The translations under genes were made by a program, and so were the position numbers. Source: Oscillospiraceae bacterium (GTDB lineage: Bacteria > Bacillota > Clostridia > Oscillospirales > Oscillospiraceae). Taken from it: a stretch of DNA of 64,000 nt. This document shows, in pieces, positions 5,353-51,818 of this stretch. The stretch spans positions 286-64,285 of the forward strand of contig JAFPWN010000015.1 of the NCBI GenBank assembly GCA_017412765.1, in the 5' to 3' direction. Each line of letters begins with the position of its first letter. Position 1 is the first letter of the stretch. Under the pieces are notes generated by a model, which was not told the origin of the DNA, did no database searches, and worked only from the letters and a program-made list of their open reading frames with translations.

Positions 5353-5370
5353 GTTTGCCTAAACGGCCTT

Positions 5371-19262: not shown

Positions 19263-19501
19263 AGTAAGCTCCTCCTTAATAATAATTTTATACTAAAAGC
19301 TGTAATGTCCATCCGGCGGAGTCTGCACTTCCTCAAAGCTGTCCACAGTCGCCCTCCGACAGATAACGCTCATACTGCGCTCTGTTCAGCTGCCATATTG
19401 AAAACAGCTTTCATGCCGTTTAGCCCTCAGCCTTGGCTGCGTCGTAAAAGCTGCAATAAAAGCTCCCGCCGGTTTGATCTGCATCACGTTTTGCCTCCGT
19501 T

Positions 19502-20014: not shown

Positions 20015-22682
20015 GCTGCTTTACGTATCGCTCGAGGGCGCAGTTCTCGCCGGGATCGTCTTTCTCATAAAGGCACTCGGCGCCAAAAGGCTCTCAAAAT
20101 CTTTTCTTTACTACATCTGGCTTCCGGTTCTGCTGAGGCTTCTTCTGCCCGTAGGCTTCGAGGTGGGCGTGATACCGAAAAGCGCGCCTGAGCCGGCGCC
20201 GTATATGACAGTCGAGCGCGCGGAGCCTTACGAAGCGCCGATAATAATCTCAAGAGCGCCGGTCGAGGTCGAGGCAGCTCCGACAGTGCGAAGCTTTGAC
20301 TGGCACAGTCTGATTATTCCGGCATATGCCGCTCTCTCCGCGGGTATCTTCCTCTTCCACGCAATAGCGTATATCGTTTTTCTCCGGAGGCTGAAGAGCG
20401 GTCTTGAGTATGTACAGGCGAGCGGACGGCTCAAGGTGTATCTCTCAAAAACCGCTGAAACTCCGATGCAGGTGGGCGTTCTGCGCCCGATGATAGTTCT
20501 TCCGAAGCGGCACTACGAGCGCGAGGAGCTTGACCTCATACTGGCGCACGAAACGGTGCATTGGCAGCGCCGCGACCTCGTTATAAAGTGGCTCATGCTG
20601 GCTGTGAGAAGTCTGCACTGGTTCAATCCCGTAGTGTACTTCATCTCGCGCGACCTCGACAGAAGCTGCGAGATGAGCTGCGATGAGGCGGTCTGCCGCT
20701 CTCTCGACGAGGACGGCAGAATGCGCTACGGCGAAACGCTGATCTATATGGCGTCCGCCGCTCGTCTGCCGGTGCGCGTTCCGGCGGCTACGCTCGTTGA
20801 GAACAAAAAGGCGCTGAAAGCCCGTATAATCGCCATCCGCGACTATAAAAGAGTGACGATCGTGGCGGTTTGCGCTATGGTTGTACTTGCGGCTGTTCTA
20901 TGCGCCTGCTCCGCGATTATTCCGGGCGAAAAGCAGGAGGATGAGATCGAAGTTGTGGAAAAGCCGGTCGTTGTAGAGCTTGCCGAGACCACGGACGAGT
21001 CCGAGGCAGCCGCCGTCGCCGCGCTCAAAGATCACGTTATGCTGTTCGCTCACAAGGGCACGAACGCCGTAGTCGAATACGAGGTCCTCGGCTCCGAGAA
21101 GAGCGATGACGGCATGGAATACCTCATCGTCTATATGCTCTCGGAGTACTCTCCCTATTCCAAAGTATATATCTACGGCGACGCAAAGGCGGCGAAGGTC
21201 ACGGGCAGCGGCAGAACGGCGTATATCGAGTTTTTTGACACCCGCGACGAGCTTGCGGATATTCTCTCCGCTCCGATCGACCTTGACAGTAACCGCACAA
21301 TAGCAAAGGATTACCGCGACGAGCTTAAAGAGCGCGCGAATGCAGACCTCAGCACCGAGAACAACGAGTGGTACGCGCCGGAAAACTACGGTCTGACCAC
21401 GCCCTCCGAGGATTACAAGCGCATCAGCGAGCTAACCGACGAGCAGGTCATCGTGATGTTCCTCAACTGCTACGATTCTTACGACGTCAAGGCGCGCAAC
21501 GAGCTGTGGAAGCGTATGACCGTCGATTACGACGCGGTCAAGGCTGCCGCGGACGCTCTCAGCGGCAAGCCCTATCGCGGCGGCGATATCAACTCTTACC
21601 TCGAGCCGATATTCACCGAATTTGATCCCGACCTGTTCACGGTCACCGATAAAGGCGGAACACTCGCTCCGGAAACCACGTACTACGCACCCGGTGAAGC
21701 GCCCGAGGGAAGCAAGATATATATCTTCTTCACCCTCAACAAATACTGCTACGTCAGACAGAACGGCGACATCATCACCTACTGCTGCTTTGGCGGCGAC
21801 GATTGGTATGAGGTGAGGAATAACAGCGACGTGCTGATCGATGGGCAGTGGCAGGATCTTTACGAGGCGGCAAGAACGCGCGGAATCGACCTCGTTTCGT
21901 CTTCGCCGGCGGCGGACGTTGATGGCTTGCCTGATTTTACCGAAATGCAGACTGACGAGCTGTGCGAGTATTATCTCAAAGCCGACGGCGCGTATGCCGA
22001 AGGTTCGGCTTTTGAGCTGTACCGGAGAGCGCTTTCCGACCCTTCCGGTGTGCTTAAATCCATTCATTCTGTGAAGACCGGAAACAACCGCGCAGTGAAC
22101 ACTCTGCTTGCCCCGCTTATTTTCGAGGACCTGGAAAACCGTCCCGCCGGCGCGTTCGGCGGCGCTCTCTATAACGAGTTTATGCAGTTGGGCGACGAGG
22201 CGGCTGAAATGTACGTAACTGCCGCAATCAGCAAAAACACTATCCGGCTGACGGCTTCCGAGAAATATGAGGAGGATTTCCCGACCGACGGCGTGCGCGT
22301 GACATACGATCCCGGCGATAATCTGTTCACCGTGATCAGCAAGGACGGGAGCAGGTATGAAAGCAAAATAATACTCGGCAGTTCGGAGAAATCCACGTCC
22401 GGAAACGATACCTTCTTCATCGCTTATAACGGCATGCAGGCAGGCGTTTATAACCAGGCCGAGAACATTCGTGAGATAACAGTCCGCAAGAACGAAACGC
22501 TCATTCTCACCGCAGAATCAGAGCTTATTTCAGCTGACGGCAAATTTAATTGGTCAAGCTCCGACGACAGTATTCTCAAAGTCAATGAGGGCAAGATAAC
22601 GGGCATCGCAAAAGGCATAGCGTTTCTGGTATTAAGGTCGGGCGACCTTTCCGACTCTATTCTCGTGCGCGTCACGGAATAA
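19998..22682 (+). CDS. BlaR1-type M56 peptidase sensor with a 600-aa extracellular region ending in a Big_2-like Ig domain
   Basis: 894 aa with LILAHETVHWQRRDL (HExxH), ..SCEMSCDEAV. The C-terminal ..SSSDDSILKVNEGKITGIAKGIAFLVLRSGDLSDSILVRV resembles bacterial Ig-like group 2. Confidence 0.85.
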   Translation: MAKMDKLLYVSLEGAVLAGIVFLIKALGAKRLSKSFLYYIWLPVLLRLLLPVGFEVGVIPKSAPEPAPYMTVERAEPYEAPIIISRAPVEVEAAPTVRSFDWHSLIIPAYAALSAGIFLFHAIAYIVFLRRLKSGLEYVQASGRLKVYLSKTAETPMQVGVLRPMIVLPKRHYEREELDLILAHETVHWQRRDLVIKWLMLAVRSLHWFNPVVYFISRDLDRSCEMSCDEAVCRSLDEDGRMRYGETLIYMASAARLPVRVPAATLVENKKALKARIIAIRDYKRVTIVAVCAMVVLAAVLCACSAIIPGEKQEDEIEVVEKPVVVELAETTDESEAAAVAALKDHVMLFAHKGTNAVVEYEVLGSEKSDDGMEYLIVYMLSEYSPYSKVYIYGDAKAAKVTGSGRTAYIEFFDTRDELADILSAPIDLDSNRTIAKDYRDELKERANADLSTENNEWYAPENYGLTTPSEDYKRISELTDEQVIVMFLNCYDSYDVKARNELWKRMTVDYDAVKAAADALSGKPYRGGDINSYLEPIFTEFDPDLFTVTDKGGTLAPETTYYAPGEAPEGSKIYIFFTLNKYCYVRQNGDIITYCCFGGDDWYEVRNNSDVLIDGQWQDLYEAARTRGIDLVSSSPAADVDGLPDFTEMQTDELCEYYLKADGAYAEGSAFELYRRALSDPSGVLKSIHSVKTGNNRAVNTLLAPLIFEDLENRPAGAFGGALYNEFMQLGDEAAEMYVTAAISKNTIRLTASEKYEEDFPTDGVRVTYDPGDNLFTVISKDGSRYESKIILGSSEKSTSGNDTFFIAYNGMQAGVYNQAENIREITVRKNETLILTAESELISADGKFNWSSSDDSILKVNEGKITGIAKGIAFLVLRSGDLSDSILVRVTE

Positions 22683-31206: not shown

Positions 31207-31237
31207 AATAAAAATCGGTCAGCCGAGGCTGACCGAT
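31207..31237 (-). terminator. Rho-independent terminator ending the ABC operon
   Basis: Minus strand ATCGGTCAGCC-tc-GGCTGACCGAT followed by TTTTATT, 7 nt after the stop at 31244. Confidence 0.75.
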
Positions 31238-31243
31238 AATTTA

Positions 31244-32350
31244 TTAACCGTAAAGCAGGCTTCTGCCCGTTTCCGGATCGAAAATGTGGATCCGCTTCTG
31301 CTCGGGAACGAGCGAGATCGGCGTTCCGGGCTTCGGAGGCTCGACGTCATCCTCGTCTATCTGAACGACCGCGACAACGTCCGCTCCGCCGATCTTCGCG
31401 TGTACGTTCAGCGTACTGCCCGTGAGCTCGCTGACGTCCGCCGCCGCGGATAACCCGCCGGGCTTCATTTCAAGATGCTCGGGGCGGATTCCGAAAGTTA
31501 CCTTTCCGCTCTTGGCGCCGTGAGCCTTGAGGCGCTCAAAGTGGTCGGCATTCAGCGCGATCTCCGCGCCGCCGACGGCAACAGAGGCGCTCTCCGCGCC
31601 CATTTTCAGCTCCGCGTCGAGGAAGTTCATCTGCGGCATTCCGATGAAGCCTGCGACGAAGGTATTTTCCGGTCTGTTGAATACCTCGCTCGGACTGCCG
31701 ACCTGCATGATGACTCCGTCGTGCATGATGACTATGCGGTCTCCGAGGGTCATAGCCTCGGTCTGATCGTGGGTAACGTAGATGAAGGTCGTGTTGATGC
31801 GCTCTCGGAGCTTAATAAGCTCGGTGCGCATCTGATTGCGCAGCTTGGCGTCGAGGTTGGAGAGCGGCTCGTCCATAAGGAAAACCTGCGGCTCCCGCAC
31901 GATGGCTCTGCCGATGGCGACGCGCTGGCGCTGACCGCCGGAGAGAGCCTTCGGCTTGCGCTTCAGAAGGTCGCGTATCTCGAGTATATCCGCCGCCTCC
32001 TCTACCCTGCGCTTTATCTCTGCGCGCGGGAAGTGGCGCATACGAAGCGGAAAGCCGATATTATCGAAAACAGACATGTGCGGATACAGCGCGTAGTTCT
32101 GGAACACCATCGAGATATCCCTGTCCTTCGGCTGCACGTTGTTTACCTTTTTACCGCCGATGAATATCTCGCCGCCGGAGATCTCCTCAAGCCCCGCGAC
32201 CATGCGGAGAGTTGTAGATTTCCCGCAGCCGGAGGGACCGACGAAAACGACGAATTCCTTATCCTTTATTTCAAGGTTGAAGTCCTTTACGGCCTCTACG
32301 CCGCTGTCCTTATAGATCTTCCAGACGTGCTTCAGTGTGACCTCAGCCAT
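31244..32350 (-). CDS. MalK/MsmX/UgpC-type ABC ATPase (sugar-importer class) with a C-terminal regulatory domain
   Basis: 368 aa with [44 protein letters not shown]. Overlaps the upstream gene by 8 nt. Confidence 0.9.
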
Positions 32351-33404
32351 TTTTTGCCTTCTTTCTCAATTTGCGTTCATATCGGCGCTCGCTTATCTTA
32401 TCGAGCGCGTCCGGTATCCCGGTCTTAAGCGCGTTTATTCCCGCCTTTATTCCGCGCACCGCCCAGTAAATTGCGAGCACTATCGGATAGATCGGAAGCA
32501 CAGCTGCCGGTATGAGCAGCAGCGCGAGCCGCGATTCGACGTTGCGAGCGGCATTCTCCCAATAGGGATAGACCACCGGCTCTGTCACCATGGTGCGCGT
32601 GAAGTAGCGCGAGAGAACGTCAAACTCCCTGAGCGGCGAAAACCTTGCGCTGTTCTCTACGACCGAGGCATCGGAAAAGCCCTCCGCGACGATGTTTTTC
32701 AGAAATCCGTCTATCGGGTCTGCGCCGACGAGCTCATAAGTCGTAATCTTCGACTCCTGCATCTCGTTGAGCGTATCGTAGTGCATATACATGACAGCTC
32801 CGTCGGAATACGCGCTCTTCGTCGCAAAATCGTCCTCGCGGCGCACGACGCCGACGATGCGGAACGGTCTGTCGTCGATTCTTACGTCCATTCCCTCGAG
32901 GTCGAAGCCGCCGAAAAGTCTCCACGCAAGCTCCTCATCGAGGATAACGCAGTCGTGAGCGAGATCGGACTCCGATATATAACTGCCGTCGCGCAGCCAG
33001 AGCGGATGGAAATAGAAGTAATCTCCGCCCACGCCGTAAACAGTGCAGCTCGCGGTCGCCTTATTGCCGGTCACCGAGATCGAGCCCTTCGCGGAGTAGC
33101 CGTCCTTATACAGACTGCCGACCTCCGGCTTCTCGATGCTCGCCTCGACGTATTTGCCGTCAAGCGTATTGCGGAAGGAATATACGCTCTCGAAGCTTAT
33201 CCCCCCGCCCATCGGAAAGAACGCGCTGACCTGAGCCGTAAGGCTCTCGCTCTCGCCCTTGAACGCCTCCGCCGCCTGCTGACTGCGGAGCATCGACGCA
33301 AGCGAGAGGTATCTCAGCACTGTCGCAGCGAAAAGGATAACGCAGAGCAGCGCTATCAGCACCGGGATCACGATTTTTCTGTTTTTTAACAGAAATGTTT
33401 TCAT
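32343..33404 (-). CDS. Membrane protein with a MacB-type periplasmic core domain but no FtsX TM bundle
   Basis: 353 aa. TM1 ([20 protein letters not shown]), then about 260 aa with a MacB_PCD-like pattern ([58 protein letters not shown]), one further TM ([24 protein letters not shown]) and a basic tail. Confidence 0.7.
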
Positions 33405-33416
33405 AGAAAAGTTCCT

Positions 33417-35351
33417 TTAATTGCCTGCCATTCTTACCTGCATACCGCTCGAAATGGGCGCGGTAGTTGTGGTTATAACGGCGTCGTTGTAGCTGAGGTC
33501 GCCGGAAACGGCTACGTTCACGTCATCCTCAGCGAGCTTCGTTACGTCGATCCTCTGCGCGGTGTAGCGGTTGCCCATCGGGCTCTGGCGCGCGACTACC
33601 ATGAGTACGAAGTCGCCGTTCGAGTCGCTTCTCATCGCGCTCTTGGGAACGATCGTGTCAAAGCTTCTGCTGCGCTCGCCGATCGTGAGATTCAGCGTAT
33701 CGCCGGAGTTTACGTCGGAGCCGGTGATGTCGAAAACGAGGATCCTGTTCGTTCTCGCGGTCTGCGGGTCGGTGCGGACAGCAACGAGGCGGGCGTTGAT
33801 ATCTCTTCCGCCCCACCACCAGCCGCTCTGAACCTCCGCCTGGTCGCCTATCATAACGCGCTGCGCCTGGTCGATCGTCACGCTCATTTCGGCGGTATAG
33901 CCGCGGTCGGGAACCTCGATGGCGACGAGCGTGCTCTCAGGCACGGTCTTGCCGCCGGCGGAGACGTTTATCTGCTTTATTACGCCGTTTATCTCGCTGT
34001 GGATCTCCGTTCCGGTCTGCACGCCGGAGTATTTTTCGACCTCCGCCTCGAGCTTTTCAACGAGCGCCTTTTTATCGTTCAGCTCGCTTGAATAGTCGTA
34101 GGAGGCTCTGTTATAGCTCGTCTGAGCATCGGTAACGGCGCGCTCGAGCCGCTTTATCTCCTCGTCGAGATTCTCGTAGCTCGTGTTTTTGAGCTTGTCA
34201 TAGGCGGCCTGCGCCTCGCTGAGAGCCTCATACTTTGTCCCGCTGTCCTCGTTTGCAAGCTCCAGCGTCTTTAGCGCCGCCTCGCACTTGGCTATAAAGT
34301 CGGGAATTTCCGCTCCCTGCGCAAGTCCGTAGGTTCTGACGGCGGCGGTGTAGGCGTCGAGCGCCTTTTTATAGCCGTCGTAGCCCTCCTTCAGGGTTTC
34401 CTGCCTCTCGTAGTCCACCGGAACGAACCATTCTCCGGTCTCGCTGTTATACTCCGAAACGCCCCACGTCAGAACGAGCTCGGAGGTGCCGTTTTCGATC
34501 TTCGTCCTCTCCTCCGCGGTATAGACGTCGATGCGGTCGGCAATGTATTTCTGCTGCTCCGCGGTGGTTTCAAGCTCCGTATAGCCCGCGGTGCGCTTGA
34601 TGACCCTTTCAGCCTCCGCGACTACCGCGTCATACGCTGTCTTGTACTTGCCCGTTGCGATCTCAAGCTCGACAGAGGCGCGCCTTACGTCGTCGGAGGA
34701 GCCGGACATGAGGTCTCTGAGCGACTCGAGCGACTCCTCGCTCACATCGCCGGAGGAAATATACTGCTTCTGCTGCTTTCCGAGCGCCTTCAGCTCGGCC
34801 TCAGCCGCCTTCACGTTTTGCTGCGCGGCGTCGTAAGCCGCCTTAGCCTCGTCGAGCGCAGCCTTTGCGGCAGCGAGGTTTTCATCGTAGGCGTCCTTGC
34901 TTGCGAGCATATCCTTCGCCTTCTGAAGCTCCTCTTTCGCGTCGTTCAGCGCTCTTGTCGCGGATCTGACGGAGGTGTCGAAGTTCACAAGCTCGTAATA
35001 CGCGCGCCGAGCCTCCTTAAGCTGAGCCTCCGCGTTCACAAGCTCCTCGCTCGACTCGTCGCTCAGCACCATGATGAGGTCGCCCACGGAGACCTCGTCT
35101 CCGAGCTTTACGTTGACGCTTCTGACCTTTCGGCTCTCATCCACGGTCACGTTGTACGTCTCGGTCGCCTTGACGGTGCCGGTGCCGCGGATCTGGACGT
35201 TTATAGACCCGCTCGTGACGGTGCGGATAGCGACCTCGGGAAGCGTCGCGTTCATGATCGTATTTGAGAAGAAGGTCAGCACAAGCAGAACGGACAGAAA
35301 AACGATCGCCGCCGTCTTGACCCAACCTCTTTTATTCTTCTTTTCTTCCAT
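33417..35351 (-). CDS. HlyD/membrane-fusion-protein-family periplasmic adaptor with a very long coiled coil
   Basis: 644 aa. N-terminal TM, a lipoyl-like motif (VNVKLGDEVSVGDLIMVL), about 300 aa of A/E/K-rich coiled coil, and a C-terminal beta domain. Only 4 nt after the MalG-like stop. Confidence 0.8.
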   Translation of the reverse strand: MEEKKNKRGWVKTAAIVFLSVLLVLTFFSNTIMNATLPEVAIRTVTSGSINVQIRGTGTVKATETYNVTVDESRKVRSVNVKLGDEVSVGDLIMVLSDESSEELVNAEAQLKEARRAYYELVNFDTSVRSATRALNDAKEELQKAKDMLASKDAYDENLAAAKAALDEAKAAYDAAQQNVKAAEAELKALGKQQKQYISSGDVSEESLESLRDLMSGSSDDVRRASVELEIATGKYKTAYDAVVAEAERVIKRTAGYTELETTAEQQKYIADRIDVYTAEERTKIENGTSELVLTWGVSEYNSETGEWFVPVDYERQETLKEGYDGYKKALDAYTAAVRTYGLAQGAEIPDFIAKCEAALKTLELANEDSGTKYEALSEAQAAYDKLKNTSYENLDEEIKRLERAVTDAQTSYNRASYDYSSELNDKKALVEKLEAEVEKYSGVQTGTEIHSEINGVIKQINVSAGGKTVPESTLVAIEVPDRGYTAEMSVTIDQAQRVMIGDQAEVQSGWWWGGRDINARLVAVRTDPQTARTNRILVFDITGSDVNSGDTLNLTIGERSRSFDTIVPKSAMRSDSNGDFVLMVVARQSPMGNRYTAQRIDVTKLAEDDVNVAVSGDLSYNDAVITTTTAPISSGMQVRMAGN

Positions 35352-35355
35352 GGTA

Positions 35356-36237
35356 TTACCCCTTTACTGAGCCCTGATGCGCGATCCCCTCGACGAGATA
35401 CTCCTCGCCGCCGAGGAACAGCAGCAGCGTCGGCACCATATATATCGTAGCAACGGCGAAGGCAAGTCCCACCTCGCCGGCGTTTATCTTGCTTAAGAAT
35501 ACGCTCAGAGGCTGCTGAGTTTCGTCAGCCAGCAGTATAAGCGGCTGCTCGACCATGTTCCAATAGTCGATGAAAACGAGAATTGCGATCGAAAAGAGCG
35601 CCGCCCTGCACTGAGGCAGGCAGATCTTCGTAAAAACGTGCCACTCGCTCGCGCCGTCGATCTTCGCGGCCTCTATGAGCGAATAAGGCACTCGGCGCAT
35701 GAACTTCGTCAGCAGAAAGACGGAGAACGGCGCCACCGCGCCGGGCAGTATGATAGCCGCGCGCGTGTTGATAATGCCGAGCCAGTCGGAAACGAGGTAG
35801 TTCGGCACAAGCGTTACCTGATACGGCATGAGCATAAGAATGACGTAAAAGAAGAATATCGCCGCTCTTACCTTGCCGCGCCAGCGCGTAAAGCCGTAGG
35901 CGGCGAGCGAAGCGATGCCGAGCTGCAGAAAGACTATCGGCACGACGAGGATAACGCTGTTCCAGAATTTCAGAAGATAGTCCGGGCTCTTGAAGAGCAC
36001 GGTAATATACTGTGAAAAGCTCACCTTGTCCGGAATGAACTTTAGGTTCACCTTCTCGGAAACGTAGGTCTTGCCGGTGTTTGCCGTTCCGAAAACGGCG
36101 CCGTAGTTTGCGTCGATCTCGGTCTCGGTCATAAAGCTGTTCGTGATCGTCAGAACGGTCGGCATAAGAAACGCGAAGGCAAAGACGAGGCAGGCAATAA
36201 ATGTTATCGCCCTGCCGAAATAGCGCTTTTTCTTCAT
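35356..36237 (-). CDS. Carbohydrate ABC transporter permease (MalG-like)
   Basis: Start moved to ATG 36235-36237 (MKKKRYFG..), which makes an ATGA overlap with the upstream stop. EAA-loop-like LIEAAKIDGASEWHVFTKICLP. Confidence 0.88.
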   Translation of the reverse strand: MKKKRYFGRAITFIACLVFAFAFLMPTVLTITNSFMTETEIDANYGAVFGTANTGKTYVSEKVNLKFIPDKVSFSQYITVLFKSPDYLLKFWNSVILVVPIVFLQLGIASLAAYGFTRWRGKVRAAIFFFYVILMLMPYQVTLVPNYLVSDWLGIINTRAAIILPGAVAPFSVFLLTKFMRRVPYSLIEAAKIDGASEWHVFTKICLPQCRAALFSIAILVFIDYWNMVEQPLILLADETQQPLSVFLSKINAGEVGLAFAVATIYMVPTLLLFLGGEEYLVEGIAHQGSVKG

Positions 36238-37196
36238 CCCTCCACGTCCTTTCCGAACCAATCCTCTACGATGAAGAGAACGGCAATGATCACGATCATT
36301 ACGAGCGCCATCATGACAGCCGCAGCGGAGAGCTTCTGGTAGTCAAGGGATTTGAACATATTGTTCATAAAGTGCTGGAGGGTGTAGAGCGAATCGAACG
36401 GGTAATTGCCCGTCAGAAGATACACCTCGCGGAATACCTTGAAGGAGTTTATCAGCGAGAGTATCGCAACGAACAGCACCGTCGGGCTGAGATAGCGCAG
36501 CTTTATCGCAAAGAACTTATACAGCGGGCTCGCGCCCTCAACGTCCGCGACCTCCAATAGCTCCGTCGGAATATTCGCAAGAGCTGACATGAAGAGTATC
36601 ATGTTGTAGCCGAGGTTTTTCCACAGAAACAGCAGTATTACGACGAGCGGCGCGTGGTCGGATTTGAACCAGTCTATCGCCTCGGCGCCGAAAAGCGCGG
36701 TCACGTCGTTGACTACGCCGTTCTGATTGAAAAGCACCTGCCAGATAAGGATGATGCTCGCCACCGGCACCATCATCGGGCTGAGAAAGAAGGTCCTGAA
36801 CTGGCTCTTCAGCGGAATTCGCGTATCGAGCAGGAGCGCCAGCACGAGGCTCAGCACGACCGCGAGCGGAACAGCCGTTGCGGAGAATATCGCCGTATTC
36901 CTCGCCGCCGTCTGGAAGGTCGAGTTTTTTATGAGATTGAGATAGTTGTCAAGCCCGACAAATTCCGGATTCAGGCTCGAGCGTATTAGCGAGTAGTAGA
37001 CTACAACGCCGAACGGCACTATAAAGAAAACGAGTACGCCGATAAAGCTCAGTCCGGAAAACGAGAGCGAGGAGAGAACGTCCTTCAGTCTGAGAAGCAC
37101 TCCCTCAGCCCGCTCCTTATTTGTCACGGGGCCGCGTATTTCCTTCAGGCGGGCCTTCCTCGCCTTTTTTTCTTTCAGGGAAACGATAACGCTCAC
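36234..37196 (-). CDS. Carbohydrate ABC transporter permease (MalF-like)
   Basis: 320 aa with a GTG start, six TM helices and LLEVADVEGASPLYKFFAIKLRYLSP (EAA loop). Confidence 0.85.
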   Translation of the reverse strand: MSVIVSLKEKKARKARLKEIRGPVTNKERAEGVLLRLKDVLSSLSFSGLSFIGVLVFFIVPFGVVVYYSLIRSSLNPEFVGLDNYLNLIKNSTFQTAARNTAIFSATAVPLAVVLSLVLALLLDTRIPLKSQFRTFFLSPMMVPVASIILIWQVLFNQNGVVNDVTALFGAEAIDWFKSDHAPLVVILLFLWKNLGYNMILFMSALANIPTELLEVADVEGASPLYKFFAIKLRYLSPTVLFVAILSLINSFKVFREVYLLTGNYPFDSLYTLQHFMNNMFKSLDYQKLSAAAVMMALVMIVIIAVLFIVEDWFGKDVEG

Positions 37197-37225
37197 CTGC
37201 TTTCTTTTAGTATTACACAGTAAGC

Positions 37226-37291
37226 GGGCGGGTACGGAGACCCGCCCCTGTCAGCCCCTGCCATCCACACAAAAGCGATGCTTTTGTGTGG
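37226..37291 (-). promoter_or_regulatory. Two strong intercistronic hairpins between the SBP and permease genes
   Basis: GGGCGGGT-acggag-ACCCGCCC (37226-47) and CCACACAAAAGC-gat-GCTTTTGTGTGG (37265-91). The position is typical of mRNA-stabilising or attenuating structures after binding-protein genes. Confidence 0.55.
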
Positions 37292-37370
37292 AAAAGGAGG
37301 CGCAGCGTAATGAATAAGCTCTGCCGCGCCCCTCAGCGGTAGAGCGCATGAGATGAAGCTTACGCCGACG

Positions 37371-39947
37371 TTATCTCTGCTCGTTGACGTAGAGATTGAT
37401 TCTTCTCTGAATGGTGTCGGCGGTCTGCTGAGAGCTCTGCTTGCCGTCGAAGTACGGAGCCGCCTCCTCGAGAATGATGGTGACGATGCTCATATCTGCG
37501 GAGTTGAGGCGGGTGGTGGAATTTATGACGCTCTCGATCTTCGCTCTCTCCTCCTCGGTCATGGCAAAGAAGCACTGCTCCGCGGGATACTGCTCGCTCG
37601 GGCCGGTGATGGTGCCTGCCTGCTTTGTCGCGGCAACCGCGACGTCATCCTCATAGACGATTCCGCCGCCGCCCTCGCCGTACCAGTACCAGTCCTTCGG
37701 TATCTCGACCTTGCCGATGACGTTGCCGTTCTCGTCGTAGTTATCCTCGTACTGGGGCGTGCAGGCGTCATTGAGCATCTTGTCGAACACGGCCTTGTTG
37801 GTCGGAATTCCGTAGTTATTAGACTGGAACTCCTCGGTGAAGAAGTAGCGCATGAAGCTCCACGCGCCCTCCTTATCGGAGCAGCGGCTGCTCATTGCGA
37901 TCGTGCCGTTATTCGAGATATTCCACGCGCTGCCGCTGCCGCTCGAAACGGGGTAGCCGACGAAGGTCGCGCCGCCAAAGAGTCTGTCATACTGGCGCCA
38001 ATCGGTAAAGCCGTTAACCTGAGTCGACCAGAGCATCTGTCTGCCCTCGCGGAAGCGGGTGAGCTCGGAGTCGTCAACGTTCGGGTCGTACTCCTTCTCC
38101 CAGTCATACGGGGTCTTGCGGAAGAGGTTGCAGAACTCAAGCGCGGCGACGAAGTCGGGAGAGTCGAATTTGCACTCGCCGGTGGACCAGTTGATGAGAT
38201 CGTCCATCATATAGCCCGTTAGCTCACTGAGCATATCGGAGGCATTTGTGTATTTTGAGAAGATGTCCGCGCCCTGCGGCATACGCTTGTAAGCCTCCAT
38301 AAGATCGGAGATCGTCCAGTAAACGCTGCCGTCGGGATTCGTGCGAACGAGGTCGCCCACGAGGCTCGTCGGCGCCATGACGGTCGAGAGATACGCGGTC
38401 GGGACGGTGTACCAGAGCTTTCCGTCAGCGTCCTTGACGGCGTTCATTATCGGCGCGACAAGTCCCGCCATGCCGCCGATGCCGGTATCCTGCTCGATCC
38501 AGGGGGTAAGCTCCTCGAGGTAGCCCTTTGCCGCAAGGCGGGTTACGGGGAGCTGATTAATATCGAACATATCGGGGATATTTCCGGCAAGAAGCTCTGT
38601 CGTGAGCTTCGTAAGACCGGCTTCCCAGTCGTTCTCGGTGTTGTACTGGCTGTAATCAATGACCTTGATGCGGTATTTGTCATTGCTGCGGTTGAAATTA
38701 AGGATCTGCCTGCGGACGTTGTAGTTCAGGTACATGCAGGCGAAGGTGAGCACGGTTCTGACCGGGATCTCGCTGTTTTTGACCGGGTGGATATTGACAA
38801 CGCTCATTTCCATGCCCTGATCGTTCCAGGTGGAGGAAATGGCAAAGAAGGTGCCGTCGTCAAGCGGGGTGATGTTGCCGATATCGCTCATATCGATATC
38901 GCTGTTTATGAAGTTCACGATCTCCTCGCAGGTGCCGTCGGAGAGCTTGACGCCGTAAATGCCGGTGGAGCTCATGCCGTAGAGATCGTAGTCCCCGGTG
39001 CCGGTGACGTAGTTATAGATGTCGCCCTTGGACGGGATGTCGTAATCGTCGCCAAGCTTGAAATTATCGACGTCGAGAGCCTTCCAGACCTCCTTGCCGG
39101 TGCCATCAAGCTCGTTATACTCATAGTTTCGGGTGACGATGGTGCCGTCGCGCAGAGCCACGACGGTGCCGAAGTAGGAATCAGAGGAGATTTTGCCGAG
39201 CACCTCGCCCTCGGCGCTCAGAACGTAAGCCGTCATATCGCTGAAGGCGATAAGCTTGCCGTCCTTTGTGGGGAGGAGACCGTTTACATAGAAGTAATCC
39301 GCGTCGGGCGCGATGACGCTCGAATCAATGGTGGCAAGCGCGGAGCCGTCGGGACCGAGCTTTGCGATAACCGCGCCGTTTTTGTACTCCTGATAGTTGT
39401 ACCACTGCTCGGAGTAAGGCTCAACGCCCTCTGGAGCGGTATTGCGGCTCGCATAGTAGCTCTCTACCGCCCAGATATTACCGTCGCCGGCGTCGCTGAT
39501 GGACTGAATATAGCTCGAAGCGTTGTCCCAGCCCTCTTCATCAGGTTTGTATGCCTCGAAGCCCTCGAGCTTCGTAATGTTGCTGCCGTCGGTGTCCATA
39601 TTCCAGAGGTATGTGACCTGGTATCCGTTATCACCGATCATATTTCCGTTTTCATCGTAAACGGGGTCGTTGACATACTCGCTCGTTGTGTACCAGAGCT
39701 TGCCAGCGGCGTAGCGCACGTCGTAATACATGCCGTCTTCATTTGAATCGAGCTTGGAGTACGACGCTACGTAGGTGTAGCCCTCGGGGTCGGATATAGC
39801 GGGGTTATCCTCCGCCTTCGGGCCGGAAGGGTTAGTGTTGTCCGGCTTTGCCGGGTCGCCGTCAGTCTTCGGAGTGCAGCCGGAGAGGGCGCCGATGACC
39901 ATTACAAGCGCCAACATGAGCGCCAGTGTGCGGGTAAAATTCTTCAT
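37371..39947 (-). CDS. Giant lipoprotein: about 380-aa beta-rich N-terminal domain fused to an ABC solute-binding domain
   Basis: 858 aa with lipobox LALVMVIGALSGCTPK. The C-terminal half has an SBP family-1-like pattern (..YRIKVIDYSQY..LLAGNIPDMFD..). The N-terminal half is rich in D/G/Y/W beta-strand repeats. Confidence 0.85.
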   Translation of the reverse strand: MKNFTRTLALMLALVMVIGALSGCTPKTDGDPAKPDNTNPSGPKAEDNPAISDPEGYTYVASYSKLDSNEDGMYYDVRYAAGKLWYTTSEYVNDPVYDENGNMIGDNGYQVTYLWNMDTDGSNITKLEGFEAYKPDEEGWDNASSYIQSISDAGDGNIWAVESYYASRNTAPEGVEPYSEQWYNYQEYKNGAVIAKLGPDGSALATIDSSVIAPDADYFYVNGLLPTKDGKLIAFSDMTAYVLSAEGEVLGKISSDSYFGTVVALRDGTIVTRNYEYNELDGTGKEVWKALDVDNFKLGDDYDIPSKGDIYNYVTGTGDYDLYGMSSTGIYGVKLSDGTCEEIVNFINSDIDMSDIGNITPLDDGTFFAISSTWNDQGMEMSVVNIHPVKNSEIPVRTVLTFACMYLNYNVRRQILNFNRSNDKYRIKVIDYSQYNTENDWEAGLTKLTTELLAGNIPDMFDINQLPVTRLAAKGYLEELTPWIEQDTGIGGMAGLVAPIMNAVKDADGKLWYTVPTAYLSTVMAPTSLVGDLVRTNPDGSVYWTISDLMEAYKRMPQGADIFSKYTNASDMLSELTGYMMDDLINWSTGECKFDSPDFVAALEFCNLFRKTPYDWEKEYDPNVDDSELTRFREGRQMLWSTQVNGFTDWRQYDRLFGGATFVGYPVSSGSGSAWNISNNGTIAMSSRCSDKEGAWSFMRYFFTEEFQSNNYGIPTNKAVFDKMLNDACTPQYEDNYDENGNVIGKVEIPKDWYWYGEGGGGIVYEDDVAVAATKQAGTITGPSEQYPAEQCFFAMTEEERAKIESVINSTTRLNSADMSIVTIILEEAAPYFDGKQSSQQTADTIQRRINLYVNEQR

Positions 39948-40051
39948 TATGTACCTCCTGAAAAAAGAAAGAGCCTATGTTTACACATTTCAGACGAGCT
40001 GACGGAAGGATTTGTTCCCGTCTCGACGGAATAAATTACATAGATGTGGTA

Positions 40052-40080
40052 AGTTTACCATAATTCGATAGAGTAGTCAA
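40052..40080 (-). promoter_or_regulatory. Sigma-A promoter of the ABC operon
   Basis: The minus strand reads TTGACT-N17-(TGg)TAAACT, about 100 nt upstream of ATG 39947. Confidence 0.6.
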
Positions 40081-40102
40081 TAGAATTTATCGTTTTTCGA
40101 TA

Positions 40103-40131
40103 TTGACTTTTTCTGCTCGCCGTCCTATAAT
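40103..40131 (+). promoter_or_regulatory. Sigma-A promoter of metY
   Basis: TTGACT-N17-TATAAT, about 45 nt upstream of ATG 40176. The leader is too short for a riboswitch. Confidence 0.75.
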
Positions 40132-40175: not shown

Positions 40176-41453
40176 ATGGCAAATTACAGATTCGAGACCT
40201 TACAGCTCCACGCAGGTCAGGAAAAGCCCGATCCGGCTACCGGCGCGAGGAGCGTGCCGATATACCAGACCGCGAGCTACGTCTTCAACAACTCGCAGCA
40301 CGCCGCCGACAGATTCGGTCTGCGCGACGCCGGAAACATCTACGGCAGGCTCACAAATCCCACTCAGGGCGTTCTCGAGGAGCGCATGGCTGCGCTCGAG
40401 GGCGGCGTCGCGGCGCTCGCCGTCGCCTCCGGCGCGGCGGCTGTCAGCTACGTTATCGAGGCTCTCGCGCAGGGCGGCGGTCACGTCGTCGCGCAGAAAA
40501 CGATCTACGGCGGAACCTACAATCTTCTCGCCCACACCCTGCCCGCTCTCGGCATCAGCACCACGTTCGTTGACGCGCACGATATTTCCGCGCTCGAGGC
40601 AGCGATAAAGCCCGAAACGAGGCTCGTCTACCTTGAAACGCTCGGAAACCCAAGCTCCGATATTCCGGATATCGACGCCATCTCCGCGGTCGCCCACGCG
40701 CACGGCGTACCGGTCGCGGTTGACAACACCTTTGCAACCCCTTATCTCTTCCGCCCGATCGAGCACGGCGCGGACGTTGTAGTTCACTCCGCAACGAAAT
40801 TCCTCGGCGGTCACGGCACGACGCTCGGCGGCATAATCGTTGACGGCGGCACGTTTGAGTGGACAGCGGATAAGTATCCCGCGCTCGCCGCGCCGAACCC
40901 GAGCTACCACGGCGTTTCTTTCACAGCCGCGGCGGGCAAGGCGGCGCTTGCGACCTATATCCGCGCTATCCTGCTGCGCGACACCGGCGCGGCGATCAGC
41001 CCGTTCAACGCGTTTCTGCTCCTTCAGGGCATCGAAACCCTCTCTCTTCGCGTAGAGCGCCACGCTGAGAACACGAAAAAGGTGCTGTATTTCCTTGAGC
41101 ACCACCCGAAGGTCGCAAAAATCAGCCATCCGGCGCTGCCCGGTCATCCCGATCACGCGCTCTATGAGCGATATTTCCCGAATGGCGGCGGCTCGATATT
41201 CACCTTTGATATAAAGGGCGGTGAAGAGGAGGCATTCCGCTTCATCGACTCGCTTGAGATATTCTCTCTGCTCGCCAACGTCGCCGACGTCAAGAGCCTT
41301 GTGATCCACCCTGCCACGACGACCCACTCGCAGCTCTCGCCCGAGGAGCTCGCAGAGCAGAACATCACCCCCGCGACAGTGCGCCTCTCCATCGGCACCG
41401 AGCACGCCGACGATCTGATCGCAGACCTCGCCCAGGCTCTCGGAAAGGTGTAA
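40176..41453 (+). CDS. metY: O-acetylhomoserine sulfhydrylase / aminocarboxypropyltransferase (PLP-dependent)
   Basis: 425 aa: ETLQLHAGQEKPDPATGARSVPIYQTASYVF.., HSATKFLGGHG (PLP lysine). Confidence 0.9.
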   Translation: MANYRFETLQLHAGQEKPDPATGARSVPIYQTASYVFNNSQHAADRFGLRDAGNIYGRLTNPTQGVLEERMAALEGGVAALAVASGAAAVSYVIEALAQGGGHVVAQKTIYGGTYNLLAHTLPALGISTTFVDAHDISALEAAIKPETRLVYLETLGNPSSDIPDIDAISAVAHAHGVPVAVDNTFATPYLFRPIEHGADVVVHSATKFLGGHGTTLGGIIVDGGTFEWTADKYPALAAPNPSYHGVSFTAAAGKAALATYIRAILLRDTGAAISPFNAFLLLQGIETLSLRVERHAENTKKVLYFLEHHPKVAKISHPALPGHPDHALYERYFPNGGGSIFTFDIKGGEEEAFRFIDSLEIFSLLANVADVKSLVIHPATTTHSQLSPEELAEQNITPATVRLSIGTEHADDLIADLAQALGKV

Positions 41454-47783: not shown

Positions 47784-47933
47784 ACGCAAGCCCCCTTTTT
47801 TCACATTATAAATTGTGCTCAGAGCAAAAGCAAGCAACGCGAAGTTGCGCGAAATTATCAGTTGTATTTTTTACCGAAAAATGCTATACTGTATTTGTGA
47901 GAATTTGGGACTTTCGTCAGAAAGGATACATAT

Positions 47934-49040
47934 ATGAAAAAGATAATGCTTGTCTTCGGCACGCGTCCCGAGGCGATAAAGATGTGCCCGCTTGTCAAGG
48001 AGCTTAAGAGCCGCAGTCAGGTTGAAACCGTCGTCTGCGTGACCGGTCAGCACCGCGAGATGCTTCAGCAGGTGCTTGACGCCTTTGAAGTCATACCCGA
48101 TTACGACCTCGCCGTTATGCACCAAGGGCAGACGCTCTTTGAGGTCACCGAGCGCGTTATGGACGGTCTGCGTCCCGTACTTGAGAAGGAGAAGCCCGAC
48201 GTCGTTCTCGTCCACGGCGACACGACGACGACCTTTGCCGCCGCTCTCACCTGCTTTTACATGAACGTACCCGTCGGTCACGTTGAGGCGGGTCTGCGTA
48301 CTTACGATATTTCCGCGCCCTACCCCGAGGAGTTCAACCGCGAGGCAGTCGGCATACTCGCAAAGTACAACTTTGCCCCAACCGTCAACGCCCGCGCGAA
48401 TCTTATAAAAGAGGGCAAGGATCCCGACACGATCTGGGTCACCGGCAACACCGCGATCGACGCGCTCGGCACCACCGTAGTCGGTGATTTCAGCCATCCC
48501 GATCTCGACTGGGCGGAGGGCTCGAGGCTCGTTATCCTTACTGCTCACCGCCGCGAGAACTGGGGCGAGCCGCTCTATTCGATTTTCCGCGGCATCAGGC
48601 GCGTAGTCGAGGAATTTCCCGACGTCAAGGTGCTCTATCCCGTACACCTCAACCCGCTCGTCCGCAAGGCCGCAGAGGATACTCTCTCCGGGTGCGACCG
48701 CATCCGCATAACCGAGCCTATCGACGTTATGGCGTTTCACAACTTCCTCGCGCGAAGCTATATGATACTCACCGACTCTGGCGGTATCCAGGAGGAGGCG
48801 CCGTCGCTCGGCAAGCCGGTGCTCGTTCTGCGCGAGGTCACGGAGCGCCCGGAGGGCGTGGCCGCCGGCACGCTGAGAATAGTCGGCACCGACGAGGAGA
48901 ACATCTACCGCTCCTTCAAAGCCCTTCTCACCGACGAGGCACTTTACGACGCTATGAGCAACGCCGAAAATCCCTATGGCGACGGCTTCGCCTCGAAGCG
49001 CATCGCGGATATTCTGATAAAAGGCAAAACGAATATTTAA
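47934..49040 (+). CDS. wecB: UDP-N-acetylglucosamine 2-epimerase (non-hydrolysing)
   Basis: 368 aa: MKKIMLVFGTRPEAIKMCPL.., ..VLVHGDTTTTFA.., HVEAGLRT.., DSGGIQEEAPSLGKPVLVLR. Confidence 0.9.
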   Translation: MKKIMLVFGTRPEAIKMCPLVKELKSRSQVETVVCVTGQHREMLQQVLDAFEVIPDYDLAVMHQGQTLFEVTERVMDGLRPVLEKEKPDVVLVHGDTTTTFAAALTCFYMNVPVGHVEAGLRTYDISAPYPEEFNREAVGILAKYNFAPTVNARANLIKEGKDPDTIWVTGNTAIDALGTTVVGDFSHPDLDWAEGSRLVILTAHRRENWGEPLYSIFRGIRRVVEEFPDVKVLYPVHLNPLVRKAAEDTLSGCDRIRITEPIDVMAFHNFLARSYMILTDSGGIQEEAPSLGKPVLVLREVTERPEGVAAGTLRIVGTDEENIYRSFKALLTDEALYDAMSNAENPYGDGFASKRIADILIKGKTNI

Positions 49041-49055
49041 AATATATAATCTTAT

Positions 49056-49085
49056 GGGCGCGGATAATCCGCGCCCCTGTTTTAT
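49056..49085 (+). terminator. Rho-independent terminator after the epimerase gene
   Basis: GGGCGCGGA-taa-TCCGCGCCC followed by CTGTTTTAT. Confidence 0.7.
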
Positions 49086-49244
49086 ACTAATCCTTGATAT
49101 AAAACTGACTTGTAATTCTGAGCAGAAATTGTGCCAGACAAGGCAGAAAAGCAGAGCATAATGGATATATATGCTCAAGGGGGCTAACGCAGTATGGCGC
49201 AATTTCTGCCAGAAGGACTGTCAGGTTTCTATTAAGGTTTAGTA

Positions 49245-49748: not shown

Positions 49749-49840
49749 GGAGAAGTCGCGTAGTTGGTCGAGCGCGCACGATTGGAAATCGTGTAACGGT
49801 CAAAAGCCGTTCGAGAGTTCGAATCTCTCCTTCTCCGCCA
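49749..49840 (+). tRNA. tRNA-Ser (anticodon GGA)
   Basis: GGAGAAGTCGCGTAGTTGGTCGAGCGCGCACGATTGGAAATCGTGTAACGGTCAAAAGCCGTTCGAGAGTTCGAATCTCTCCTTCTCCGCCA, with a long variable arm, anticodon loop TTGGAAA and an encoded CCA. Confidence 0.92.
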
Positions 49841-49845
49841 GAAAA

Positions 49846-49885
49846 GAACACCAAAATGTCTACCTGATATTTTGGTGTTCTTTTT
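49846..49885 (+). terminator. Rho-independent terminator after tRNA-Ser
   Basis: GAACACCAAAAT-gtctacctgat-ATTTTGGTGTTC followed by TTTTT. Confidence 0.8.
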
Positions 49886-49916
49886 GCTTTTTTACGTGTT
49901 TCAGGGGGTGAGATAG

Positions 49917-50003
49917 GTGGTCGAGCAGATCATAGTACGGAAAGACAGCATGGAGATCGAGTTCAAATGCGGAGCCAGCATAACAAAAGAATACGTAAGA
50001 TAA
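49917..50003 (+). pseudogene. 28-codon 3' remnant resembling the C-terminal end of a large serine recombinase
   Basis: VVEQIIVRKDSMEIEFKCGASITKEYVR*, preceded by an in-frame TAG. The '..I.V..d..ieI.Fk.g..i' ending is recalled from Clostridial recombinases. Weak because it is short. Confidence 0.35.
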
Positions 50004-50139
50004 GGCAAAGCCTCGTAAATCGTTGGTACACAGCGGTTTGCGGGGCTTTTTTGCGTGCTAAAGGATTGAAAAATTCACATTTTTATGCTATACTAATCAG
50101 AGAAAAGGGAATCGACAAACTGGGATTTGAGGAGTTAAA

Positions 50140-50889
50140 ATGGCTAAGTTTAATCTTTATGTGCCATCAAAGGGTGATTACTATGATGGATTTAGAGGGG
50201 AACTCAATTCATTTAACGCTTTTTTAGAAAATTATATATGCTCGATTTATTCTTTCAGAGGAGAAGAAATTAACCTTTCTGGCAAGATACATTATTCGAA
50301 TATATGGTGCGATAAAAAAGCAAAAGGTATTTTCGCACGAAAACCTAAACAGCATGAGCAGATAGTACAAAGGCTTGAACAAATCCCCATCTTCGAAGCG
50401 CAACTTCCAGATGGCGTTTCGCTTAACACTGAGCTGGAGACAATAACGCCTATAGAAACACCACATCAAAGAATGATGAATGTTCACATTCATGTTTCAA
50501 AGGATTATTCTTCAAAAATCTATAACATAAGAAAAAAGTACGAGTCCAACAAAGAAATAATGTATAGAATAATGGACGGTCTACTTAATCTAGGAAATAA
50601 CAATTCATTTACCAAGGGCTTATTTACAATAGATGTGAACACGAGCTACATTAGTATGACATCCCCTGGATATATAAAAACACGGGACGTGTTAAGGTTT
50701 ATAGATATTGGTATGCAGGACTTACAACCTGATTTACTCGATATATTAGCCTTTGCTGATGTCTTTTTGGAATGCACCAGAGAAAGATATAATAATTCGG
50801 TAGATTTCAAAAGTGAGATTATAACTATAAGTTGGGGGGGACCCCCAACAATCGCAGTTGACAATCGTCCAGAGCCGAAGCCGTGGTAA
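50140..50889 (+). CDS. Orphan AT-rich hypothetical protein (249 aa)
   Basis: MAKFNLYVPSKGDYYDGFRGELNSF... No signal peptide, TM or recognisable motif. Composition is clearly AT-richer than the rest of the window. It has its own terminator. Confidence 0.65.
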   Translation: MAKFNLYVPSKGDYYDGFRGELNSFNAFLENYICSIYSFRGEEINLSGKIHYSNIWCDKKAKGIFARKPKQHEQIVQRLEQIPIFEAQLPDGVSLNTELETITPIETPHQRMMNVHIHVSKDYSSKIYNIRKKYESNKEIMYRIMDGLLNLGNNNSFTKGLFTIDVNTSYISMTSPGYIKTRDVLRFIDIGMQDLQPDLLDILAFADVFLECTRERYNNSVDFKSEIITISWGGPPTIAVDNRPEPKPW

Positions 50890-51004
50890 TAAAATGACCA
50901 TTAGTCAACACGGCTATACAAATCCCGGTTTATCGGGCTGAAAACCGTGTATCATTTTGGCGCTTTTAGTTGGGTTTACGTATCATTATGGTGGTCTTTT
51001 TCAG

Positions 51005-51039
51005 AAAATACAGATACCCATTCGGGTATCTGTATTTTT
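51005..51039 (+). terminator. Rho-independent terminator of the orphan gene
   Basis: AAATACAGATACCC-attc-GGGTATCTGTATTT followed by TTTT. Confidence 0.8.
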
Positions 51040-51194
51040 TATTCTGAGAGATTCTAATTCATTATCGATATATGCCGGCGGCATATTGCTTTGACAAGTG
51101 CGCACACCGGTCAATTCCTCTATCCGGCAGCGCCGGTTACCCCAACACTAAGTCAACTTTTTTAACTTCTCGTCCTGTATCGCCGTTTTCCCGC

Positions 51195-51223
51195 TTGAAT
51201 GCGCGGTGATTCTTTTGTATAAT
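51195..51223 (+). promoter_or_regulatory. Sigma-A promoter
   Basis: TTGAAT-N17-TATAAT, 24 nt upstream of ATG 51247. Confidence 0.7.
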
Positions 51224-51246
51224 CTTCTAAAACGGAGGTGACAATC

Positions 51247-51729: not shown

Positions 51730-51818
51730 CGTCTTTTTTCTTGTGCATTTGTAAATCTACTTTACAAATGCACAATCCGCTGTTATAATTTAATAAAGCT
51801 TCCGAGAGGGGTGAACGG

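Follow-up and report, generated by a model that had tools for sequence, protein, structure and literature searches.

The operon described here lies in a stretch of 64,000 nt from an Oscillospiraceae bacterium (assembly GCA_017412765.1, contig JAFPWN010000015.1, forward-strand positions 286 to 64,285), which was analysed at its full length and is referred to as the window. An initial annotation of this DNA had reported six genes on one strand at positions 31244-39947, and the listing of open reading frames (ORFs) in the window placed all six, co-oriented on the minus strand, at these coordinates. They combine the components of an ATP-binding cassette (ABC) carbohydrate importer with two envelope proteins related to those of MacAB pumps, and this six-gene architecture is real, widespread and apparently undescribed. 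In the 5' to 3' direction the genes encode a substrate-binding protein (SBP), a MalF-like and a MalG-like permease, a membrane-fusion protein (MFP) or adaptor, a protein with only a MacB-type periplasmic core domain (PCD) between two transmembrane (TM) anchors, and a MalK-type ATPase:

37371..39947, minus strand: lipoprotein SBP, 858 aa; signal peptide with lipobox Cys24, disordered linker at 25-55, propeller at about 57-390, SBP domain at about 398-858
36234..37196, minus strand: MalF/UgpA-like permease, 320 aa; BPD_transp_1 at 1e-16, UgpA, GlcT and MalF models, six TM segments by hydropathy, EAA coupling motif EVADVEGASPLYKFFAIKLRYLSP
35356..36237, minus strand: MalG/UgpE-like permease, 293 aa; BPD_transp_1 at 8e-17, GlcU, UgpE and MalG models, six TM segments, canonical EAA motif IEAAKIDGASEWHVFTKICLP
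33417..35351, minus strand: MacA/YknX-type MFP (adaptor), 644 aa; assigned by Pfam, NCBIfam, PDB profile comparison, AlphaFold2 (AF2) and Foldseek
32343..33404, minus strand: TM1-PCD-TM2 protein, 353 aa; MacB_PCD (PF12704) at 2.4e-11, the sole Pfam match and above the curated cut-off
31244..32350, minus strand: MalK/UgpC/MsmX-type ATPase, 368 aa; ABC_tran, OB_MalK and TOBE_2, the OB/TOBE part forming a C-terminal regulatory domain

Direct reading of the bases gave the same gene junctions as the initial annotation: the MalF stop and MalG start codons share ATGA (-4 nt), the adaptor gene begins 4 nt after the MalG gene, 12 nt separate the adaptor and PCD genes, and the start of the ATPase gene overlaps the PCD stop codon by 8 nt (ATGGCTGA). 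These junctions imply co-translation. The MalG start was set at the ATG at 36237 and not at the TTG at 36261 chosen by the ORF lister, because the former creates the ATGA overlap with the MalF stop codon and yields 293 aa, in agreement with homologues of 291-295 aa.

Synteny was assessed by tblastn of the six window proteins against related loci, of which 52 had the 6.8 kb or more of upstream DNA needed to be informative and 67 had enough downstream DNA for the ATPase gene to be checked. The SBP, MalF, MalG, adaptor and PCD genes were present on one strand and in that order in all of the 52 informative loci, and a MalK-type ATPase gene stood directly after the PCD gene in 32 of the 67, the ATPase gene being absent in about half of the loci. 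The syntenic loci come from different species, their proteins are 25-86% identical, and separate look-ups of individual loci returned the same gene arrangement. The nearest relatives were metagenome-assembled genomes of rumen Oscillospiraceae, in which the six proteins are 69-98% identical to those of the window, and the order SBP-permease-permease-adaptor-PCD-SBP was found in a record of Acetatifactor (Lachnospiraceae), with permeases 61-69% identical to those of the window. The initial annotation had proposed to check whether the gene order recurs, and the adaptor/PCD pair was found together with the SBP and permease genes in two families of Clostridia. The PCD-only protein was detected in at least 545 species genomes (one genome per species was scanned), and nearly all of the best 80 of these carriers are Oscillospiraceae or other Clostridia; these 80 originate from gut, rumen, termite gut, digesters and groundwater.

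Because the synteny is complete and the PCD-only family is large, the gene pair is not a chance insertion, and because the MalK gene directly follows the PCD gene in 32 loci, the adaptor/PCD pair lies inside the importer operon. The initial annotation had named, as the finding that would speak against it, an adaptor/PCD pair normally travelling with its own FtsE/FtsX genes, but in 52 of 52 loci the pair was accompanied by the importer's SBP and permease genes. Neither FtsX nor FtsE was encoded within the conserved gene run or recurrently in the flanks of the related loci, whose ATPase gene was either MalK-type or missing. Sharing of the MsmX ATPase is a habit of Firmicutes CUT1 importers (PMC5730181), and the loci without an ATPase of their own fit this habit.

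The flanking genes varied between loci. When 497 flanking ORFs of the related loci were clustered, no glycoside hydrolase or sugar regulator was found to be generally conserved beside the operon. A response regulator of the OmpR type was located just upstream in about 10 of some 80 loci, as was a membrane-bound histidine kinase (for example, the two-component genes at 2317-3366, minus strand, of locus L052 and at 1667-3049, minus strand, of locus L069); neither is in the window. Positions 3806-7892 of the Acetatifactor record (L089) encode an ABC ATPase together with a permease of 1129 aa that has an FtsX-PCD-FtsX layout and a long stretch of coiled coil; these genes are on the same strand as the importer operon and about 1 kb upstream of it, which may be coincidence.

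The importer components were identified from several sources. Both permeases matched PF00528 at about 1e-16 and contained six hydrophobic segments each, and their EAA motifs were read from the translations. The ATPase matched ABC_tran (7.6e-33), OB_MalK (1.1e-12) and TOBE_2 (8.6e-8), and scored 466 bits against the UgpC subfamily model, for which the cut-off is 432. The MalK-type ATPases of several related loci are extended at the C-terminus by 60-90 Pro/Glu-rich residues that end in a conserved GDPFAE(D/E) motif (L004, 10123-11409; L040, 10985-12301; L051, 11080-12363; L056, 5158-6522; L067, 10988-12301), and the 368-aa ATPase of the window is without it. Either the basic cytoplasmic tail of the PCD protein or the stub of the adaptor could dock on this extension.

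The window SBP had no usable Pfam or NCBIfam match and fell below the Pfam SBP thresholds, so the SBP_bac_1/8 match expected from the initial annotation failed for this protein itself, whereas its homologues do carry SBP_bac_1/8 (PF01547, PF13416) and the model has an SBP fold. The 858-aa protein was called an SBP because of these homologues, of its sequence similarity to the cellodextrin-binding CbpC in a PDB search, and of its predicted fold. Foldseek comparison of the AF2 model (predicted local distance difference test, pLDDT, 82.9; predicted TM-score, pTM, 0.80) gave CbpC (7x0o) as the top match at an E-value of 3.8e-16, followed by other oligosaccharide SBPs down to 1e-10. In the model the domain is a CUT1-type oligosaccharide SBP, and its fold similarity suggests an oligosaccharide as the ligand. 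The lipobox Cys24 was invariant among 32 SBP homologues. The initial annotation was right to describe a giant SBP lipoprotein, but had not recognised its N-terminal domain (57-390), which is all-beta and resembles an NHL/Reg_prop propeller; the propeller profile matched NHL repeats at 3.7e-9, and Reg_prop was matched by 5 of 12 members.

Related SBPs are 730-870 aa long and occur in one to three tandem copies per locus, and the tandem paralogues suggest that several ligands feed one translocator. Two or three tandem giant-SBP paralogues precede the permease genes in loci L004, L018, L020, L036, L040, L045 and L086-L088, and the Lachnospiraceae locus L089 has one SBP gene before the permease genes and another after the PCD gene (16624-19299).

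The adaptor matched HlyD_3, Biotin_lipoyl_2 and RND_mfp, the last at 1e-21, which is under the curated cut-off of that model, and its profile matched EmrA, HlyD and, weakly, MacA in the PDB. An AF2 model built from 29 homologues (pLDDT 80.7, pTM 0.31) retrieved AcrA, MacA, MexA, EmrA and Spr0693 by Foldseek at E-values of about 1e-12. The stub and TM segment occupy residues 8-39, the lipoyl domain is split between 39-96 and 448-480 by the helical insert (102-442), and a beta-barrel (485-557) and a membrane-proximal domain (562-641) follow; the TM helix comprises residues 9-35 in the model, and one TM segment was also found by hydropathy. Anchor, lipoyl, beta-barrel, membrane-proximal and alpha-hairpin parts of the MFP family were all recovered by AF2, Foldseek and profile comparison, and as modelled the adaptor is a complete four-domain MFP. 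The insert is about 340 residues long, with a small beta tip at about 296-312 in the model, and the corresponding insert of MacA is, by our estimate, about one third of this length. Should the insert form a single hairpin that turns near residues 290-313, its reach could be roughly 20 nm, again by our estimate, which is based on the secondary structure. Assembly of the adaptor as an oligomer, usually a hexamer in this family, on an energised transporter is assumed by analogy.

The PCD protein has its MacB-type core domain between two TM anchors, as judged by hydropathy, a YPYWENAAR motif ahead of TM2 and a basic cytoplasmic tail; neither an FtsX four-helix bundle (PF02687) nor a nucleotide-binding domain (NBD) was found in it by Pfam and hydropathy analysis. 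The family profile matched the MacB PCD (3ftj) at 1.6e-9 and YknZ (5f9q) at 4.7e-3. In a database clustered at 90% identity there were 684 PCD-only homologues, those listed being 305-435 aa long and matching PF12704 only, and in a representative library the family comprised 660 clusters at 50% identity (E <= 1e-30), almost all of 300-500 aa. Two apparent fusions were considered. In P0440 (1089 aa), a PCD-only protein complete to TM2 is continued in the same frame by a propeller-SBP with the lipoprotein signal ...LLLMAVGLTGC..., and this could represent either a genuine fusion cleavable by signal peptidase II or two abutting genes without a stop codon between them. It was not accepted as a 'Rosetta stone' fusion, because the SBP retains its own lipoprotein signal peptide and the genes may merely abut. 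P0483, an apparent fusion of a PCD and a HAD protein, seems to be a merged gene call and was discarded.

Conservation was highly uneven across the operon. The median identity to the window proteins was 77% for MalG, 68% for MalF, 61% for the ATPase, 42% for both the PCD protein and the adaptor, and 32% for the SBP. Region-wise values, calculated as mean pairwise identity after removal of redundant sequences, were 78% for the adaptor TM helix, 68% for its 11-residue cytoplasmic stub, 51-60% for the lipoyl, barrel and membrane-proximal domains, and 26% for the helical insert. The adaptor's N-terminal motif, KxRxWVKxxAIxFLxVxLVLTFFSNT, hardly varied among the 29 sequences aligned, and the Lachnospiraceae copy retains it too. 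Such near-invariance exceeds what a mere anchor would need, which suggests, from a comparison made within this adaptor family, that the TM helix packs specifically against a conserved partner, the obvious candidates being MalF and MalG. In MacAB pumps, the TM helix and cytoplasmic stub of the adaptor are required for stimulation of the transporter (PMC5985334). In the PCD protein, the core domain (64%) and the YPYWENAAR motif (68%) were the conserved parts and the TM helices were only 22-28% identical. This pattern fits a protein that would serve as a platform for the extracytoplasmic domains of the adaptor and not as a membrane-embedded partner of the permeases.

ABC transporter classification and a review of MacB assign these two sets of modules to separate transporter types, adaptors and PCDs to the type-VII exporters and mechanotransducers and SBPs and MalK to the type-I importers (PMC8386196; PMC5985334). 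The operon has the parts that define a CUT1, or type-I, importer: an SBP with a MalE-like fold, two BPD_transp_1 permeases with EAA motifs, and a MalK/MsmX/UgpC-type ATPase with OB/TOBE domains. Among the features that define type-VII (MacB/FtsX) systems, only a PCD homologous to that of MacB was found, and the four-TM FtsX permease and the MacB/FtsE-type NBD were lacking. Since these two defining features are missing and the importer parts are present, the system is best regarded as an importer variant and not as a member of the MacB family. Domain, fold and synteny data all support the initial annotation's classification of the genes as type-I importer parts with an embedded adaptor/PCD pair; the Pfam scan recovered the domains that it had predicted for the permeases (BPD_transp_1 in both), the adaptor (an HlyD-family domain, here HlyD_3, and Biotin_lipoyl_2), the PCD protein (MacB_PCD) and the ATPase (ABC_tran and TOBE_2), and its statement that no FtsX bundle or second ATPase is present held for the operon and for the other window ORFs scanned.

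The likeness to known systems is therefore twofold. The operon shares with the MalEFGK2, MsmEFGK and UgpBAEC importers a lipoprotein oligosaccharide SBP, two permeases that each have six TM segments and an EAA motif, and a MalK/MsmX-type ATPase ending in an OB/TOBE tail, and with the MsmX-sharing systems of Firmicutes the absence of the ATPase gene in about half of its loci. It differs from MalEFGK2-type importers in that genes for two additional envelope proteins, both conserved and anchored in the membrane, are placed between those of the permeases and the ATPase, in that the SBP is twice the usual size and has an N-terminal beta-propeller, and in that no catabolic or regulatory genes are consistently attached. 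With MacAB-TolC, YknWXYZ of Bacillus and Spr0693-0695 of S. pneumoniae it has in common an adaptor with a TM segment and lipoyl, barrel, membrane-proximal and hairpin domains, and a partner protein whose PCD sits between TM1 and TM2; YknXYZ and Spr0693-0695 also operate in single-membraned hosts, as presumably does the present system. Unlike these pumps, it has no TM3/TM4 FtsX bundle, no MacB/FtsE-type NBD and no outer-membrane duct, its sole ATPase is of the importer (MalK) type and its operon partners are importer parts. MlaFEDB/Mce systems are conceptually alike in that an ABC core works with a substrate-binding protein and with an oligomeric accessory that spans the envelope, but their folds are unrelated (MCE domains and a type-VIII-like permease), their substrates are lipids, and their envelopes are Gram-negative or mycobacterial.

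The initial annotation could match the operon to no described transporter architecture, and a full-text literature search, which had most subscription journals outside its scope, also found none, an absence that is not proof. A 2026 review devoted to bacterial glycoside transporters is silent on adaptors, on MacB and on accessory subunits. Two apparent precedents were dismissed: in A. bescii the text match to 'MacB' came only from strain names such as MACB1018, and the Bifidobacterium system is an ordinary MacB exporter.

We give about an even chance to the interpretation that the six proteins form one machine, in which a MalFGK2-like CUT1 oligosaccharide importer would be equipped with two dedicated envelope subunits of MacAB/YknXYZ ancestry that build a vestibule or conduit reaching into the wall. 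In such a machine, the near-invariant TM helix and cytoplasmic stub of the adaptor would pack on the equally conserved MalF/MalG core, and the adaptor's membrane-proximal and barrel domains would rest on the PCD-only protein, as MacA rests on the PCD of MacB. The PCD-only protein, which two generic anchors would keep in the membrane, would act as the platform, and adaptor oligomers, which by analogy may be hexamers, would project their very long helical hairpins into or through the thick wall. The resulting vestibule or conduit above the translocator could allow large oligosaccharides to reach the giant propeller-SBP lipoprotein or lipoproteins, from which they would be passed to MalFG for import powered by MalK2. 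What the analysis shows is the content of the operon, the folds and topology of its products, the tight coupling of the genes, their universal synteny and the pattern of conservation; we infer that the proteins form a physical complex and with what stoichiometry, in which direction it transports, that its substrate is a sugar and that it serves as a conduit. The conduit role builds on two published ideas, that adaptors of Gram-positive bacteria provide channels through the wall-proximal zone and that peptidoglycan is bound by YknX (PMC5985334). The envelope-spanning accessory scaffold envisaged in the initial annotation is consistent with this arrangement, and the conservation of the adaptor TM helix adds some support to it.

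Several points weigh against a single machine of this kind. The variable TM helices of the PCD protein indicate that it is probably not tightly packed on the permeases. The length and shape of the adaptor hairpin are uncertain because of the pTM of 0.31, and adaptor length ranges from 505 to 821 aa across loci. If the adaptor formed a closed hexamer above MalFG, this might be a steric obstacle to the docking of an SBP of about 90 kDa, and a conduit is not obviously needed, since peptidoglycan already passes small oligosaccharides. Furthermore, with no conserved hydrolase or sugar regulator nearby, the substrate class is assigned from SBP fold similarity alone.

Other explanations of the same operon were weighed. 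In type-VII mechanotransducers, PCD modules are the working parts (PMC5985334; classification in PMC8386196), and it is conceivable, if improbable, that the ATP-driven motion of MalFGK2 is transmitted through the adaptor TM helix and the PCD to do extramembrane work, as in MacB, LolCDE and FtsEX, for instance to pull a polymer inward, to strip an oligosaccharide off an insoluble substrate or to switch on a wall-bound enzyme. An adaptor TM helix as near-invariant as the permeases, and a PCD core and pre-TM2 motif conserved at 64-68%, agree with such transmission, but the PCD protein is without TM3, TM4 and the coupling helix that join the MacB PCD to its NBD, its own TM helices are poorly conserved, and no conserved hydrolase partner is encoded nearby. 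Alternatively, the adaptor and PCD protein could be co-expressed with the importer without binding to it, as a separate static scaffold that might bind peptidoglycan to keep a cavity open, or tether the giant SBP lipoproteins. This explanation, which we regard as unlikely, would draw on the peptidoglycan binding of YknX-type adaptors (PMC5985334), on SBPs that are unusually large (730-870 aa) and present in one to three tandem copies, and on the one database ORF (P0440) that runs in frame from a PCD into a lipoprotein SBP; it leaves the extreme conservation of the adaptor TM helix and stub without a reason, and it sits poorly with the location of the pair between the permease and ATPase genes, at overlapping or near-abutting junctions.

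A role in envelope housekeeping was also considered, with a glycolipid or a glycopolymer of the cell wall being recycled or moved, either by import of turnover products or by an atypical export. The wide occurrence of the system in Clostridia, the strong conservation of the permeases alongside rapidly diverging SBPs, and flanks that differ by locus and hold no conserved glycoside hydrolase or sugar-specific regulator would all suit such a role, but every part that defines direction (the SBP, the EAA permeases and MalK with its regulatory domain) is of the importer type, and fast-evolving, duplicated SBPs are better suited to variable external ligands than to a fixed self-polymer; we therefore assign it a low probability. 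That the pair is a decayed remnant of a MacAB-like efflux system lying by accident in a sugar operon, with no joint function, might be read from the names given by annotation pipelines, 'HlyD family efflux transporter periplasmic adaptor subunit' and 'ABC transporter permease'. The synteny data effectively refute such juxtaposition, since the order holds in 52 of 52 informative loci, which belong to different species and whose proteins are 25-86% identical; in addition, both reading frames are intact with conserved motifs, and PCD-only proteins make up a large family whose members are uniform in length. We consider its probability negligible.

The conserved mixture of type-I and type-VII modules in hundreds of species of Clostridia that dominate gut and rumen breaks the rule of thumb that each ABC transporter fold keeps its own partners. 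The PCD-only two-TM proteins constitute a large unrecognised family that is now annotated as 'ABC transporter permease', and the adaptors are annotated as 'efflux', with the consequence that resistome and efflux counts of gut metagenomes probably include these proteins wrongly. If the one-machine assembly is real, it would provide a handle on the role of adaptors in bacteria without an outer membrane, and it could reveal how large glycans are acquired by Gram-positive gut bacteria in the absence of Sus-like systems. A more far-reaching proposal, which we put forward only tentatively and consider doubtful, is that the operon encodes an ABC machine for trans-wall import, which would be the first in a single-membraned bacterium. 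In it a type-I importer would be functionally joined to a MacA-like tube and a PCD platform, with a tripartite-pump architecture turned inward, or a type-VII mechanotransmission module coupled to a type-I motor, and large glycans would be threaded or fed through the peptidoglycan to the propeller-bearing binding proteins.

Candidate signals for the transcription of the operon were located at both of its ends, and the SBP and MalF genes are separated by a structured spacer:

40052..40080, minus strand: sigma-70-like promoter candidate upstream of the SBP gene; TTGACT, 17 nt, TG-TAAACT, with 9/12 consensus matches and the TG extension
37197..37370, minus strand: structured spacer of 174 nt between the SBP and MalF genes; two strong hairpins, no T-run
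31207..31237, minus strand: intrinsic-terminator-like hairpin downstream of the ATPase gene; 10-bp stem with six GC pairs, then the T-run TTTTTATT, stem and T-run at 31237-31214

The promoter and terminator candidates bracket the six genes on the minus strand, as the single upstream promoter and single downstream terminator of the initial annotation required. Internal signals would have pointed to separate transcription units, but the consensus scan gave only weak promoter and terminator matches within the operon, all inside coding sequence. The two strong hairpins of the 174-nt spacer, also reported earlier, were reproduced by RNA folding (-76 kcal/mol, z = -4.5; none of 200 shuffled sequences folded as well). 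Inspection of the spacer found no T-run after any of its hairpins. A division of the operon into two transcription units at this point was considered unlikely, because the hairpins are without a T-run and because the SBP and MalF genes overlap in other loci. As in other SBP operons, the spacer may act as an mRNA stabiliser or as a partial attenuator that sets an excess of SBP. An Rfam scan of the whole window found tRNAs only and no riboswitch or leader RNA. The strongest promoter-like match of the region (40103-40131, plus strand, 11/12) is directed away from the operon and faces a 425-aa ORF (40176-41453) that encodes, judging from its translation, a putative O-acetylhomoserine sulfhydrylase, so that the intergenic region at 40035-40131 holds back-to-back divergent promoter candidates.

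The neighbouring genes are ordinary chromosomal genes. UvrD, RlmL, ThiF, SpoIIE and hrcA-dnaK-dnaJ were identified by the Pfam scan, and a 497-aa multi-pass membrane protein read as a MATE-type exporter, a putative uracil-DNA glycosylase, the putative O-acetylhomoserine sulfhydrylase and a putative MnmA were assigned from translation only. SpoIIE indicates an endospore-forming Firmicute, and the envelope was accordingly taken as that of a monoderm, the host being presumably single-membraned. The scan of other ORFs in the window turned up neither an FtsX or MacB permease nor a further ABC ATPase.

Five long ORFs of 443-722 aa (455-2623, 3707-5203, 47871-49202 and 61744-63435 on the minus strand, and 9727-11274 on the plus strand) had no Pfam match at E <= 1e-5. 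Two very large, divergently oriented proteins with BlaR1-type M56 peptidase domains are encoded at 14515-18894 (minus strand, 1459 aa) and 19998-22682 (plus strand, 894 aa), and no further Pfam domain was found in either of them past the N-terminal M56 domain of about 280 residues. A tRNA-Ser gene (49749-49840) is followed by the lowest GC content of the window (0.43 at 50001-52000, compared with about 0.55-0.60 elsewhere), and this low-GC stretch after the tRNA gene (49749-52000) may be an integrated element.

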